In this document: piece after piece, positions 9,961 to 61,159 of the stretch | Layout of the letters: each line of letters opens with the position of its first letter | Numbering within the stretch: the stretch's first letter is position 1 | Made by a program: the position numbers and the translations under genes | Notes under the pieces: model-generated | The model's input: the letters and a program-made list of their open reading frames with translations, nothing else | The model's database searches: none | Told to the model about the DNA's origin: nothing | NCBI GenBank assembly: GCA_951406725.2 | Contig: OX597832.1 | Coordinates: 40,858,001-40,922,000 of the forward strand | Source: Octopus vulgaris | Taxonomy: Eukaryota | Direction of reading: 5' to 3' | DNA length: 64,000 nt

Positions 9961-10540
9961 CCCTTTAGTATTTAAACCAGCTATATTGAGCCAAAATATT
10001 CCATTTGTTTTATGTTCAAACTGGTCAAGTACAGTCTCTTACACCTATGCTACAATGTCATGCTAAAAGTAAACAATCCTATAATCGAAATCTCAAAGCT
10101 ACAACATAATGCATAATTAATTCCAAACATAATTGCAGCGTGGAAGATGTTTATAAGCCATTTAAGAAACAAACAAAAAAAACTGTTAGATTCACTTCAA
10201 CATTTAAATGTAATTTGTGTCAAAATATTTTCGTTGCTTTGAAACCCTGACCTGTTCATTGACAAAACTTTGTCCTGCATCTCAAAGTTTTGTCAGTGAA
10301 CAGGTCATGGTCTCAAAGCAACGAAAATATTTTGACACAAATTCAGTTTAAATGTTGAAGTGAATCTAATGGTTTTTTTGTGTTCTTAAATGGCTTATAA
10401 ACAACCTCCATGCTGCAATTGTTTTTGTTTCAGCACATGATCTCAGATCAAGTCACTTGCTATGCAAGTACATCTCCATAATTCCAAACGATGTGAATAA
10501 AAAGCGATACATTTGACAAACTAATCTGGATGCTGAAGGG
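9961..10540. mobile_element. piggyBac-like MITE hosting a fold-back insertion
   Basis: (a)TAA|CCCTTTAGTAT ... ATGCTGAAGGG|TTAA termini. Confidence 0.7.
10129..10478. mobile_element. Fold-back Penelope-LTR-like element, G3-C8 hammerhead family
   Basis: ~140-bp inverted arms; 11-bp TSD TAATTCCAAAC (10118-10128, 10479-10489); homologous to 51778-52066 and 60835-61039. Confidence 0.8.
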
Positions 10541-11778: not shown

Positions 11779-12042
11779 TAAAAACAATAAGATAACAAAA
11801 GAAAGAAAGAGACCTCAATATTATGTAAATAGAGGAATTTATCTGTAAATATAATATGTGACAATTACTTGGTAGCCAAGATAAAACTCTGAGTTTCGGA
11901 TGCCGAGGTGGAAATCCACAGCACCAGATAACTGAAGGATGGCCAGATAACCAAAGAGATGGTGGTGTGGATTTCCACCTCGGCATCCGAAACTCAGTTT
12001 TATCTTGGCTACCGAATAATTGTCACATATTATTTTTACAGA

Positions 12043-12044
<2 letters not shown>
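11775..12044. mobile_element. Fold-back Penelope-LTR-like element with decayed hammerhead
   Basis: Inverted arms 11840-11925/11961-12044; AGATAA-CTGAAG..GATG..CATCC-GAAA-CTCAG(AG)-TT-TATCT; embedded in (TA)n. Confidence 0.7.
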
Positions 12045-12074
<30 letters not shown>

Positions 12075-22076: not shown

Positions 22077-23092
22077 CATACATACACACATACATATTGT
22101 TATAGTAAAATATATATTTCACAGTATCACTGTTTATGTCATCATCACCATTATCATCATCACAAAGCTCCTACACGATCACTCAACTCGCTAGAAATAG
22201 CAGCCAAAATTTCCTTTAAAACCACACTCTACCGTCTTAAACGAGGAAACAAATTAGTTAATATGGTCCTAAATACCTTTAGTGAGGTGATTGTCAAGGC
22301 TAGACTACTTCCAGTTATAAGTCTGCATGATCACAGTTGACTTTGAGCTAAACAACAACTAACACTCTATCCTGTTGTCTTGTTTTATGAACATCTTTTT
22401 GATGTTTTTTTTTTTTTTTGCTCATCTAAAAGTATGAGAAGCTGGCAAACTTATAAGACAAAATCATCTTCATTCATATTTGTTATGTAATCTTCCTTCC
22501 TCTCTCCCCACTCTCTCTCTCTCTCATCCACTTTCAGACTATCACCAGGCAGGATGTCACCAGGGGGTTGGAGGGGAAAATGGTTTTGGTTCTCTGAAAT
22601 AAATCTAAGCTATCTCATCTTCAAGACTGTTTCTTATTCTGCCCCCATCACATCCTCTCATTCCTCACTTCTCCAACACTTTGTCAGTGCCTGAATCTCT
22701 GCTACCTCTGTCTAATTAGTTACGTCTCAGTTGGAAACCCTTCTTGTTTATTGTAGCTACTCTGAGTACCTGGTGCTACTCACCCTACTGGTTGGTTATT
22801 TAGTTGGACATTGACTGTGTTTTGATAGACTAATGGTAGAAGTTGAACCCAGACTAGGTTTGTTTTTATTCAATGACCAATGACTTAAGAGGAGATCATG
22901 GTTTTCATTGAATGTCATGAGATAAGTGAATTAAGGGGAAAATCAGATTTTGAGGGAATGGTAGGTGAATGGTTGTGTTGCAAAAAAGGAGAGGCGGTTA
23001 GCACTCCCTTTGACAAGGATGGAAGAGATCAATCGATCTTTCCAACACATATGGGCATTGCTCTCTACTTTAGAGCAACCTATTTAAAAATA

Positions 23093-24627: not shown

Positions 24628-24975
24628 GAGTGTATTAAAGATTTATACACAGAGAGAAGACCCTTGACAGGACTTCTTATATGCTAAAAAGGGCAGTTAA
24701 ACCCAAGCCATGAGGAAAAAATGGAATTCTCAAGGTATGCTGCTAATAAGCACTAGAGTGAATAAAAAATTAGTTAATCCTATACTCAAGTTTCGTTATT
24801 AATGACCAGATAAATTAATTTGGTCATTAATAGTGAAACTTGAGTATAGGATTAACTAATTTTTTATTCACACGAGTGCCTAGTAGCAACGTGCCTTAAG
24901 AATTCCTTTTTAGCATGTAAGAAACCCTGTCAAGGATCTTCTCTTCTTGTATAAACCTTCATACACCCTCGTATA
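24628..24975. mobile_element. Long fold-back element (Penelope-LTR-like)
   Basis: Arms ~24628-24808/24821-24975; the inner ~65 bp are nearly perfect; GAAACTTGAGTA hammerhead 3' half on both arms. Confidence 0.75.
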
Positions 24976-27485: not shown

Positions 27486-27578
27486 ACTAATGTAGGATAA
27501 AATTTTTTTCGAGAAAAAAATTTTATCAATGGCCAGCATATCAAAAAATATCTTTAAAGGTTAAATTTATAAATAATT

Positions 27579-27757
27579 TACAAAAATAAGGGCAAAAGAA
27601 AAATTCTAATGCCAAATATGCCAAAAAAAGACAAAAATTGTCAATAACCATTATAATTTATGTGTATAAATTTATAAATTATAATGGTTATTGACAATTT
27701 TTGTCTTTTTTTCGGCATATTTGGCATTAGAATTTTTCTTTTGCCCTTATTTTTGTA
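27579..27757. repeat. Near-perfect ~82-bp-arm inverted repeat
   Basis: tacaaaaataagggcaaaag...ccattataatttat against its reverse complement 27675-27757. Confidence 0.9.
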
Positions 27758-28468
27758 TATATATATGTGGTTGTGTCTGTGTATGTATATATATGTTTAT
27801 ATAAATGTGTCTATATATTTGTATATATGTATATATACATGTATATATTTGTATACATATGTATAAAGTTTAAAATGAGCAGAAAATTGAGTTTTCCCCA
27901 TTTTCTGCTCATTTTAAATTTAATTCCCGATAAACTCATTTATTCTGTTATTACCTGCATCTTCTGTGCATAGTATGCTTGCATACTCATGCCCAGGGTT
28001 AGCATAGGTAATTTGCACCCTCGGTAATCACTCAGGGTAAGCAGTTGGCAGCCTTTATGTAGTAAAACATAAAAAATAAGTGATCAACTTCTGCCTTTAT
28101 AGCATGTAAAGAAAATAGTGTTGCAGAAATATATGCAGCAGGTGTACTACGGCAGTACTATGTATGGCTGAAATACTGAGATAGAAGACTAGAGGTGAAA
28201 TATTCCTAACCAATCTACAAAAATAAAAATTAAGCGTTTTTTCATTTTTTGCATAGAAATCAAACTAACCTTTATCATTTTATTGAATTAGTTGCACACT
28301 TTGACATGTGTGGAAAATGTTGCTGTTGATCTATTTTATTCAATTAGGCACAGCCTACCTTGGTGGCACCTCCCTGATATATATATATATATATATATAG
28401 CTGTGCATATATGTATGTGTGTATATAAATACATATATAAATACATATATATATAAACATATATGTAT

Positions 28469-35092: not shown

Positions 35093-36064
35093 AAAGTAGA
35101 AAAATATTGAGAGACGAAACTATTCTATTTCATGTGTTACTGGTCATAGAAAATGAACCTTATTATCCATAATCTCCATTATATCACTATCTAAATATTA
35201 GATTAGCGTTTCTGACACTAAATACGCCATATTTGTAACCAATGGTTCAGGGTGTAATTGCAACAGTTAACCTGTGCTATTTTCGACAGAATTAAGAAAA
35301 CATACCAATAAAGAAGGCGGTCCTACACTAAAAGAATTTTGGCAATATTCAGTATTTTGGATGCTGTAAAAATAATTTTTAAAAAGTCTGAAACAAATTA
35401 TGAAAGACAGATAAATTCTACCTGTAACGAGACTGTTTGTCATACCTGGGGCCGATGGTCGTCTCACAAAACGTTACAGTCAGAAAATGGCTCCTGCGCT
35501 GGTGTTCTACGATTGGTCATGTGCTGGTGTAACACATTGACCAAGCCCAATGTTGAAATTGGATACGTTAGTACCCAAACAAGGGGCGCCAAGATATTGT
35601 TTGCTCCTTGGAGTCCTCGATCATCTTCAATTCGGAGTATCTTTCTTCTTTTCGCCAGTGAAGTGGGGAAAAGGCACACGGAGAGGAGAGTTATTCTGCG
35701 GGTAGTTTTGATGCGCTACGTGTGTTTTTGTTCACCATGTACCAGTAACCAGAGAGGATATGAGGGACTGCAAGAAGGGATGTGACGTATTTCTGTTCCT
35801 GTCTGCTCAGCACACATCACCAAGTTCCGACTGATTGAGAAGCAAATATGTATATTTTTCTTCAGGCAGTATCATCATGATGTAACCAACTTGTTGCTGT
35901 ACCAATTCATTTAGGGTTGAATAAAAAATGTAGCAGTTAATTGCAACTCGTTTTCTAGTATTTCTTTCCACTGTTTATACACGACTTACTGGAACTAAGA
36001 AATTGAAATTATACCAGGGCTTGAGACACACTAACCAACCTGGGAGATATATATATATATATAG

Positions 36065-36295
36065 TTTATTTAAAGCAGCAGAAAATTCAACAAAACCTGT
36101 TACTTTGAGTTTCCCGTTGCCGTTCATCGGACAGTTTTTTCTAGCAAAACTGTCCGATGAACGGCAACGGGAAACTCAGAATAACAGGTTTTGTTGAATT
36201 TTCTGCTGCTTTAAATAAAGCATATTACTCTACCACTGGTATTTGAGTACTCTTTTTTCCACCTTGTTTCACATTTATGTGTTTACTCCGGTATA
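36065..36295. mobile_element. Fold-back Penelope-LTR-like element with a hammerhead motif on each arm
   Basis: Arms 36065-36138/36146-36219; CTGT-CCGATGA-A-CG-GCAA-CG-G-GAAA-CTCAGA(G)TA-ACAG. Confidence 0.75.
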
Positions 36296-51425: not shown

Positions 51426-51777
51426 TGTTTATAACTATTAATTAAATACAGCTATAAACTATTTATTCTATTTTGTTTATCATTTCTAAAGTGTTCCCTC
51501 TCTACTTTTTGGAAAATCCCAAACACATGATTTGGTTCGCCCTAGGATATGATGCCACCAAACTGGCTGTACTTTCACCAGGCTCTAATTGTAAGGTATT
51601 ATTAATGTATATGCGTTAAATGCCATTGTTATTAGTCAACTTCAAAAATGAGTCCTTTAGGGTGCGTCACGTTCTCATATTCATATCCTGGTAAAGCACA
51701 CTCTAATATTCGTCTTTGAAGTCGACAAAATAAGTAGCAGTCATGAAATGGTGTTTCAATAATTAGTTAATTGTATA

Positions 51778-52066
51778 GGTATTGAAGGTGTTTATAAGCC
51801 ATTTAAGAAACACACAAAAACCATTAGATTCACTCCAACATTTAAATTTAATTTGTCAAAAGATTTTCAGTGATTCGAGACCGCGACCTGTTCACTGACA
51901 AAACTTTGTGCAGCACGAAGTTTGACAAATTAAATTTAAATGTTGAAGTGAATCTAACAGTTTTTGTGTGTTTCTTAAATGGCTTATAAACACCTTCCAC
52001 GCTGCAATTGTTTTCGTTCCAGCACACCATCTCAGATCAGGTCACTTGCTATGCAAGTGCATCTCC
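51778..52066. mobile_element. Fold-back element, G3-C8 hammerhead family
   Basis: Inverted arms; 11-bp TSD TTAATTGTATA (51767-51777, 52067-52077). Confidence 0.82.
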
Positions 52067-54237
52067 TTAATTGTATATGTTGTTATTCTAATCAGAACTG
52101 TTTTTTTTTAACTATTGATCTGTAGCAGAGGTCAGTAAATTCTTTCTGTGACGTAATACGAATCATTTACCCATGGTTCACATCCGCAAAAGATTGTTTC
52201 AAAACCATCGACCACTCCATAGATTACATATATATAAAATTTTTTATATTTTTAGAAAAAATACGAGTCCCACAGAGACCGCTAATTTGTAGAGCGTAGC
52301 TTACCTATTACCGACCTGTAGTCTGGAGTAAAGGACTCTCACAAATCTTTACAAGTCTTCTGAGACCGGTGAGATATTTCCAGTTAATGATCTTAAACAA
52401 TTGCATGTCAACGATTACAGAAAAAAACAAAACATATTCAGGGTGGGAGGGATTTGAATGGGCCGACATTCTCCTTCCTTGGCGCAATAGTTCACATGGT
52501 GTGGGTGTAAGGGCTGAGAAGCCTTAACAGTTTAGTGACGTGAGAGGATCAGTAAGTGGAGGTAAGGACAAATAGGTGTTAAGAAATTGACTCCTACTGA
52601 TCGGAAGGAGCTGGAATTTTTCTATTGTTAATGTTTTCATTTTCTTATTCTCATTACTTCTAAAGTAAGACAGTAATGCAACTTGTTCCATTCCAAACAT
52701 TTACCAAAGTCATTGTCTTCATCTCCTGCCAAGCAACTGCAAATGAACATGGACGTCTTCATGAAGCAACAGTGCTTTTACATTATTGGGGGAAAAATCT
52801 TCAGCTCACTTTTTTGGACGTAATTCAAACAGGAAAAGAAATCCCCAAAGGGAACCACACATTTTTGAGTGGGTGTATATATAATATTATATACACCAGC
52901 TTAAACTCATAATCTCAGTAATGATGTGTCATGCTGGGCTTCAGATGATTGTACATAAAGCAAAAATTTGCTACTTATTAACTTGATACCCAGTGTGTTG
53001 TGTTCAAGACACTTGAACAAGCAAATTTCATTGGCATTGTTAACTTGTAATAAAATAAGATGCTCAGACTTTAATAAGTTAATTTACAAATTTTCTAAAT
53101 GGCTCAAACTTTGAAGTGTCTTCATTTTAAGATTTACCACAGGCTTTATTTTTCGCAATGGTATGCCTTTTCTGAAAACAACACTGCCTTAACATGATAT
53201 TCCTATAACCACTGTTATCACTCCTTTCAGACTGTACGAATTTCTACATACACCTTTTGGCCTAAAATACGCAGCACTATCCTTTCAGTGCTAGATGGAA
53301 ACCGAGCGTATGGGTCTAGACTTTTCACATACCCAGATGACATCTTTATTGCAAGCCAAAATACAAAACTACTCAAGAAGCACTTAGTGGCTCTTTTACT
53401 TGAACAATATAGTTTGGTTAGTCAAACCCACTTTGTCTTTTAAGAGTCCTACATTCAAATTCCAACACATGACTTAGTACATTAACACCACCAGGTCTTT
53501 GTTAAATATGCCATTTATAAACAACTATGTATTTATCTTGCCTAACTTTCATGCTTTCTGCTCTTCGTTTGAGAGTCACCTTTTAGAGAAAGCTGTTGCA
53601 ATTTGGTCTTTAATTTGCATATATAAAAAACAGCTTGTTTTCTGTGCCATAAATTGTACAAGCACATGCTCTTGAAACATTATTCTAATTTATCACATTA
53701 GTTCTAATTTCTAGGCCATATTCAAATTCAGATGTTTTCTTTTAATTCCTCTATCACTTGATGCCATTTTGAAATGTAAGAATTGTGAAATTTTAGGAAA
53801 ACTTAGAATTCAGAAATTACCAACTAACACTACCAACTAATAGCATAATAGTTTAAAGTAAGCTAAGACTGAAAGCAAGTCAATCAAATGCTACCCAGAT
53901 GAAATGCAATATGAAATGTTCTCAAACCCATCCATTTGCACACACATATACACACATACTGCAAACATGTGCACTTACAAAAGCACACAAATGTCCATGC
54001 AAACTCGGAGTTTCCCATAATACAGTTGGCCAATATTTAGTGAGACAAGAGGCAGAGTTTAGGTTTAATTGGTGTGTTTTTAAGAACACAGAAATATTTG
54101 TTTGGGATATACTTTGATTGCAACTGGAGAGCTGCCCAGGGTCCAGTTGTCTGTTTTGGCATGATGCTCATGGCTGGATGCCCTTCCTAAGGCCAACCCG
54201 TTTTCAGAGTGTACTGGGTGCTTTTTACATAATACCA

Positions 54238-60030: not shown

Positions 60031-60851
60031 TCTATGGAAAGATTAATGGGGTAAGTGATCTCGGCAAGAAAGTGGTCTTAGATAAGAAACTCATTCTCGA
60101 AAAGGGTTAGTGGGAAAAAACAAAAATAGCAGTCGGAGGTTATAAGTCTAGCCTCATTACATAATTGCAGTCATTGTATTTCTTTTCATAGTTTCTTGGC
60201 CTAATTTCACGGACAAAGCTTCTCTACACTCTGTCACTCTGTTATCTGTTTGTTGCTGTTGTTGGCATTGATGATGACACTATTGTTGTTGTTGTTGTTG
60301 TTGTTGTTGTGTTCGCCAATAATGGTGAAGTCAATATGTCTTTAATCCCAATATCATCAACTTCTAATACCTGAACTTTACTCTTGTGATAACAGTTGAC
60401 TTACATCAGCAACGACAATGACAACGACGATGACAACAACAACAACAATAACATCAATAACAACAGCAACAATAATCCATCATTAATATCTCAGTCACTA
60501 CACCACCACCGCTATCATCAACAACACCAATACTGATATCCTTGCTACAGTGTGTTTTTTTTTTTCTTTTTGCAAAGAACACAACTAAATACTTACAATG
60601 AATACAACAAAAAACAAACAAAAATTTAAATACAAAAGACAAAAAGAAAATGAGGTACTTTCCTATTATCAACGGCCAATTTTTACTATTATGAAAATAA
60701 TTAGTAAATTAACAAACTATTGGACTCCTATTAGATTCATGAGACAAGTGTAATAGTTAGTTGATCATTGAACTTTCAGAATAGCAATCACAGCCTCATG
60801 GAGGAAAAGTACCAATTAGTACATATATATATATGAGATGCAGTACGGAAT

Positions 60852-60902
60852 TTTGTCAGTGAACAGGTTGCGGTCTCAAAGCGACGAAAATATTTTGACA
60901 AA
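60852..60902 (+). ncRNA. Minimal type I hammerhead with G3-C8 core, inside a 205-bp monomer (60835-61039)
   Basis: TTTGTCA-GTGAACA-G-GTTGC-ggtctcaaa-GCGAC-GAA-AATATT-T-TGACAAA. Confidence 0.62.
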
Positions 60903-61159
60903 TTAAATTTAAATGTTGAAGTGAATCGAATGGCTTTTGTGTGTTTCTTAAATGGCTTATAAACACCTTCCACGCTGCAATAGTTTTCGTTCCAGCACTC
61001 GAATCTCAGATCAGGTCACTTGCTATGCAAGTACATCTCTGTAATACCTATTAATATTTACTGGAAAAAGGCATGGAATTGGAGCACCATCCGATCGTGG
61101 CCGTTGCCAGCCTCGCTTGGCCCCTGTGCCAGTGGCATGTAAAAAGCACCATCCGATTG

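Follow-up and report, generated by a model that had tools for sequence, protein, structure and literature searches.

The window analysed here, a 64,000-nt stretch of the Octopus vulgaris genome, contains towards its right-hand end a solo copy of the 5' end of a Penelope-like retrotransposon, together with two head-to-head insertions of the same family. The features of the window are as follows.

60835..61045 (plus strand): solo 5'-end copy (pseudo-LTR end and tail) of an endonuclease-bearing Penelope-like retrotransposon; the 3' end is sharp family-wide, and the sequence is continuous with an open reading frame (ORF) at loci L174 and L173
60835..60836 (plus strand): untemplated G that is likely cap-derived, and the A at which transcription is inferred to start; of 831 copies without the parent's C at this place, 82 of the first 100 have G
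60852..60902 (plus strand): minimal type I hammerhead, with G3 at 60859, C8 at 60864 and A9 at 60865
60952..61045 (plus strand): first ~31 codons of the parent reverse transcriptase (RT)-endonuclease ORF, opening with the same ATG as in L174; a 1-nt insertion breaks the frame in the window copy
60985..61045 (plus strand): Penelope 'tail', ~60 nt between two preferred 3' ends (118/231 versus 80/231 arm ends)
10132..10482 (arms in both orientations): head-to-head insertion of a short inverted arm without tail and a long arm with tail; 11-bp direct repeat 10118-10128 / 10479-10489
51784..52070 (arms in both orientations): second head-to-head insertion, with a plus arm lacking the hammerhead; 11-bp direct repeat 51767-51777 / 52067-52077
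1499, 14449, 38241, 42959, 50993 and 2780, 4678, 6096, 11070, 23092, 61977: abundant repeats of two families

The two abundant repeat families, ~430 and ~240 bp in size, are distinct from the Penelope family. The window also contains a match to the U6atac snRNA (22975-23087, plus strand, 85 bits, above the Rfam cut-off), with an interspersed repeat directly behind it from ~23092. Four further long palindromic stretches (11818-12067, 24718-24911, 27576-27760 and 36059-36225) lie outside this Penelope family; they may represent miniature transposons or retrocopies inserted head to head.

The hammerhead motif can be read directly from the sequence. Stem I is formed by 60852-60858 pairing with 60896-60902 (7 bp), and the core reads GUGAACA; A9 is followed by one extra G and a 5-bp stem II, which opens with a G-C pair and has a 9-nt loop, and then by GAA and the palindromic AATATT. 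The two stems, the palindrome and the core are thus as described in the initial annotation. The motif has the further elements of a minimal type I hammerhead (stems I and II, U4-G5-A6, A9, G12-A13-A14, A15.1-U16.1 and H17), with U17 at 60895 and the predicted cut directly 3' of it. The canonical C3-G8 letters are absent from the motif, and G3-C8 takes their place. Because pairing between positions 3 and 8 is retained in this form, we filed the motif as a hammerhead variant, and from its sequence the flipped core is likely to represent a natural variant of the self-cutting RNA. A relaxed descriptor with positions 3 and 8 free matched 60852-60902 as the sole site in the 64-kb window. The same descriptor gave three matches in 464 kb, compared with none in five Markov-resampled controls of equal size. 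As had been anticipated, the G3-C8 core escapes CUGANGA-based descriptors; in an Rfam scan of the window, the hammerhead was absent among the matches listed (best 150 of 193, E <= 1). The fold z-scores were modest (-1.9 for the window copy and -3.3 for a younger copy).

The initial annotation had also placed the GUGAACA core in the other window insertions. It does recur in the right arm at 10.3 kb and in the minus-strand arm at 51.9 kb, but the stem II or GAA context has decayed there; the left arm at 10.3 kb has A3, and the plus arm at 51.9 kb has no motif. In 600 kb of random sequence, where the G-C motif was found only in this Penelope family, we counted six insertions, corresponding with a wide error to a few tens of thousands in the whole genome (2.8 Gb, 227 contigs). 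A genome-wide search for an exact 20-letter pattern that left positions 3 and 8 free returned 7,500 matches. G3-C8 was present in 6,867 of these, which supports the claim that this core is fixed in a mobile family; the remainder consisted of 408 copies with G3 and non-C8, 204 with non-G3 and C8, and 21 with both positions changed, and C3-G8 was not represented (0 of 7,500). The pair was restored in 8 of the 21 both-changed copies versus 7.8 expected, indicating that positions 3 and 8 decay independently among copies. Independent variation, which the initial annotation had set against its own proposal, is therefore formally observed within the family. It is not informative on selection because inserted copies decay without selection, and the informative comparison is that of source lineages.

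Six main subfamilies are distinguishable, all of them fixed for G3-C8. At this level the core, stem II and stem III are invariant; what distinguishes the subfamilies is loop II, the sequence just outside stem I, a single T-run and one change from U-A to a U-G wobble. The C8-to-G change accounts for ~36% of the position-8 changes (~147 copies), compared with ~18 copies for the mirror change at position 3. A G3-G8 sub-lineage was ruled out, because the C8-to-G copies are spread over several subfamily backgrounds, which indicates recurrent change. A candidate second G3-C8 family in the genome was likewise rejected: the one pattern used gave 360 matches versus 58 in a reversed control, and the first 100 of the 360, inspected by eye, were mutated copies of the Penelope family, a repeat without stem II, and singletons. 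Sequencing runs of four further organisms contain part of the element, and positions 3 and 8 were absent among the variants listed for reads or contigs aligned to it.

Related motifs occur elsewhere in this genome. At L088:668-1640, tandem ~166-bp units of the family consist of a tail-less arm and a TA run with the G3-C8 motif in each unit, which provides a natural setting for dimer cleavage. In the random sequence, an array of ~355-bp units (L031:2300-4600) contains a type I hammerhead with the canonical C3-G8 pair; five units lie on one strand and two on the opposite strand, and in its sequence the array looks like a retrozyme. U3-A8 core motifs occur in the repeats of L050, L064, L112 and L131.

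The parent element was reached from reads crossing the 5' end of the unit. These provided an upstream extension with 471 exact genomic matches, and following it further upstream revealed a single frame that encodes a GIY-YIG endonuclease together with an RT. RT motifs, a CxxxCxxC linker and the GIY-YIG domain are present at L133, L141 and L172. L172 has an 839-aa open frame with the motifs DKS, YVDD, VYQIKC and YIGET, and its linker (CQSNCAVC at residue 710) is of the CX2-5CxxC type and lies ahead of GIY-YIG. The C-terminal piece matched PF01541 (E 2.6e-5), and a Pfam scan of the entire 839-aa ORF gave no match. Among 30 loci picked solely by the endonuclease, 24 have a complete motif ~1 kb past the stop codon, with GUGAACA every time; the other six comprise four without a sense copy in reach, one partial copy and one with a damaged GAA stretch. 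In L174 and L173, the unit lies ahead of the ORF and runs directly into it, and in L174 a pseudo-LTR unit is present on both sides of the ORF. The ATG at 60952 opens the polyprotein in L174, whose N-terminus aligns with that of a sister family (discussed below), and this start codon is located 57 nt past the predicted cut site. The linked RT/GIY-YIG ORF suggested by the initial annotation thus exists, in one frame and continuous with the unit in L174. A self-contained 205-bp monomer is not supported: the sequence runs on into this ORF, and the unit is not self-standing but forms the 5' terminal part of a Penelope-like retrotransposon. L131 and L141 also contain a different Penelope-like element (PLE) with a Neptune-type linker.

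The ends of the copies differ from those first assigned. The true 3' end is located ~6 bases beyond the proposed boundary at 61039 and is sharp throughout the family. The self-complementary ends GAGATG...CATCTC do not constitute a terminal inverted repeat, since the first G of the copies corresponds to a pyrimidine in the parent. In the first 100 of the 831 non-C copies, the base before AGATG is G in 82, A in 12 and T in 6, and the sequence upstream of the G-starting loci is unshared in 23 of 23. An untemplated 5' G in retrocopies is a mark of a copied cap, and the first G is probably untemplated and cap-derived in this family. Most simply, RNA synthesis would begin at the A at 60836 and priming ~210 nt downstream would yield the 205-bp unit, in which case neither the first G nor the 3' hexamer is an end of the element. 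We considered the upstream CTAAC...AG as a splice acceptor, which is disfavoured: beyond the single G, the upstream sequences of the copies are unrelated, which favours a transcription start. An internal promoter with an initiator is described for Penelope in the available text of PMC2377424. Our literature search found no mention of an untemplated G or cap in Penelope elements.

The arms have two preferred 3' ends. In a set of 231 aligned arms, enriched by targeted searches, 118 terminate at the far end and 80 at 146-154, ~60 nt earlier; the short end is typical of an inverted or inner arm, and the tail is present at one end only. Inverted arms were seen in many loci. Direct repeats measure 11 bp at both head-to-head insertions of the window and 12-14 bp at some further loci, and no target duplication is evident at the 60835 copy.

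The sister family, found in the same genome, has 54% protein identity and groups with the G3-C8 family (SH-aLRT 99) in a quick tree that used 17 of 78 metagenome loci and no reference PLEs; one row of this tree, labelled Poseidon-like, carries a Neptune-type linker. The sister motif occupies the matching place before the start codon and is C3-G8 in 52 of 52 occurrences, with C at position 9 and with A-U in stem II where the flipped-core family has G-C. The C-for-A9 change is also present in the relative L223. Many sister frames of 1,310-1,312 aa are intact at 99% identity (L192-L221, e.g. L197:60-4119), and the family was likely active recently, as judged from these frames. Sequence behind the ORF is available for 21 metagenome relatives. 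With positions 3 and 8 free, nine of them have a motif and 12 do not, several of the latter for lack of sequence. The pair is C-G in five of the nine distant motifs, U-A in three and A-U in one, whose stem I is weak; none is mismatched. When all 78 loci were scanned more strictly, there were six matches, all paired at 3-8, versus one in five resampled controls. Among individual relatives, L222 has U15.1-A16.1, and L235 has a possible A3-U8 core with a weak stem I. The proposal of a compensatory change at 3 and 8 is thus borne out across lineages, in which C-G, U-A, A-U and G-C pairs occur without a mismatch, the sister family included. Because the C3-G8 sister groups with the family among C3-G8 and U3-A8 relatives, the comparison suggests that G3-C8 is likely a derived state that arose from C3-G8.

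Most properties of the element have counterparts in known systems. According to the available text of Cervera and de la Pena 2014 (PMC4209133), metazoan Penelope pseudo-LTR hammerheads are C3-G8, with U3-A8 as one natural covariant. The motif shares with them the type I order, the extra base between 9 and 10.1, the G10.1-C11.1 pair and the short palindromic stem III, and the element shares the pseudo-LTR location and the predominance of solo copies, some of them close together on opposite strands. In contrast to those hammerheads, the core is G3-C8 and stem I has 7 bp rather than 4-5. The hammerhead at the pseudo-LTR/ORF junction and the AT-rich targets are also found in the Poseidon element PAc of the green anole (Frangieh et al. 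2024, PMC11167929), the tail of which was traced to reverse transcription initiating at two sites within the ORF. The engineered C3G/G8C variant of PAc, which has the same pair as the octopus family, cleaves partly. However, G3-C8 is natural in the octopus, the start of the ORF is 57 nt downstream of the cut site, compared with 26 nt upstream of it in PAc, the tail is ~60 nt long, and the protein has a zinc-finger-like linker.

The order of RT, CX2-5CxxC linker and GIY-YIG, the tandem or inverted 5'-truncated structure, the one-end tail and the (TA)n targets are all features of Nematis/Neptune PLEs in the available parts of Craig et al. 2021 (PMC8557442). In Fig. S2 of that paper, the Nematis rows show a similarly short spacer after CxxC, a likeness seen in the alignment. 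Two of the four octopus entries in its supplement were compared and neither is this family, and the 9-letter core word is absent from one file of that supplement. Natural covariation at 3 and 8 is known in other hammerheads, for which the available text of Perreault et al. 2011 (PMC3088659) names U3-A8 rather than the G3-C8 observed here. Our literature search, of partial coverage and thus compatible with an earlier report, found G3-C8 only as an engineered form, and it found no description of this octopus Penelope hammerhead family.

The copies were also compared at the predicted cut. Among 30 copies inspected from 118 matches, 17 start at this position, which corresponds to ~67 genome-wide (counted at the cut site alone), whereas 831 copies have the cap-site pattern. 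When copies were picked by their 3' part, 1 of 30 starts at the cut. In one raw RNA run, no pile-up of starts or ends was seen among 1,774 reads on both strands, 84% of which continue into unrelated sequence. In the computed dimer, stem I is swapped between the copies, and the six-pair stem III is unfavoured (-21.2 versus -23.0 kcal/mol without it, a cost of 1.8 kcal/mol). The engineered C3G/G8C double mutant was reported to give partial rescue of cleavage (PMC11167929, and the available text of PMC8495972 and PMC3884650), and insertion in vitro was reported to proceed without the need for cleavage (PMC11167929).

These observations bear on three other explanations of the unit. The resemblance to a hammerhead could be accidental, the unit being a miniature DNA transposon bounded by the inverted repeats GAGATG/CATCTC; the hexamers are complementary in the window copy and two window copies are palindromic, but the 3' end lies past the hexamer, the G is absent in the parent, the 5' ends vary, and the palindromes consist of tail-less inverted arms with direct repeats of 11-14 bp. 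With a parent that encodes RT and GIY-YIG and a unit that runs into the ORF in L174, this reading is refuted and retains a negligible probability. It is very improbable, too, that the family is an independent non-autonomous retrozyme replicating through a 205-nt circular RNA. A descent of retrozymes from Penelope pseudo-LTRs has been proposed (available text of 10.64898/2026.07.22.740005), and tandem ~166-bp units of the family do exist in L088; however, tandem copies are confined to L088 and the others are dispersed, solo or inverted, the solo copies have fixed linear ends (an inferred start and a tail) rather than permuted ones, the parent sequence continues into a protein gene, and no head-to-tail joint is among those listed for the raw RNA run.

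A third explanation accepts the Penelope origin and regards the ribozyme as a relic, in which drift produced G3-C8 in a source element with no further need of cleavage, the fold being unselected or kept for protein binding or translation control. We consider this unlikely, though less so than the preceding two. Drift is unlikely to account for two transversions by which the pair is restored exactly, with the other core bases intact in six subfamilies, and for relatives that show only paired 3-8 combinations; on the other side, both sides of the cut are present in most octopus copies, the engineered double change rescues only partly, and for the anole element cleavage was dispensable in vitro and cut-site reads were not found (PMC11167929).

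The explanation that we prefer, with a probability of roughly 80%, is that the 205-bp unit is a Penelope 5' end that was likely internally primed on capped, uncut mRNA, and that the flipped G3-C8 hammerhead likely still gives the source element a weak self-cleavage that depends on dimer formation or on protein. Reverse transcription would start inside the ORF and run to the capped start of the mRNA. Because the copies hold both sides of U17, their templates were uncut, and the solo copies likely arise by such priming. G3-C8 would have arisen from C3-G8 by a double change, and an inactive intermediate could have been tolerated, since insertion in vitro is reported not to require cleavage (PMC11167929). 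In this scheme we infer the cap origin, the internal priming, the derivation from C3-G8 and the catalysis. Weighing against it are the rarity of copies that start at the cut, the lack of a pile-up of ends in the RNA run, the unfavoured six-pair stem III, the empty Pfam scan of the entire ORF and the excess of C8-to-G changes. A bolder version could equally well prove right or wrong: a Penelope-like lineage would run on a cleaving G3-C8 hammerhead, its clade would use all four Watson-Crick 3-8 pairs, descriptors would have missed whole ribozyme families, and the cap-marked solo copies would record internal priming on uncut mRNA.

The element is of an ordinary kind, and its unusual core variant is well supported. 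G8 donates the 2'-OH that has been proposed as the general acid (available text of PMC6155905). In the literature examined, G3-C8 has so far been known as a laboratory rescue mutant, and the octopus family provides a natural, amplified example, with which it can be tested directly whether selection acts on cleavage by Penelope hammerheads. Hammerheads are undercounted by searches with a fixed CUGANGA core. With the cap-to-tail copies, the internal-priming model is carried over from in vitro work on one lizard element to a genomic setting in another clade.
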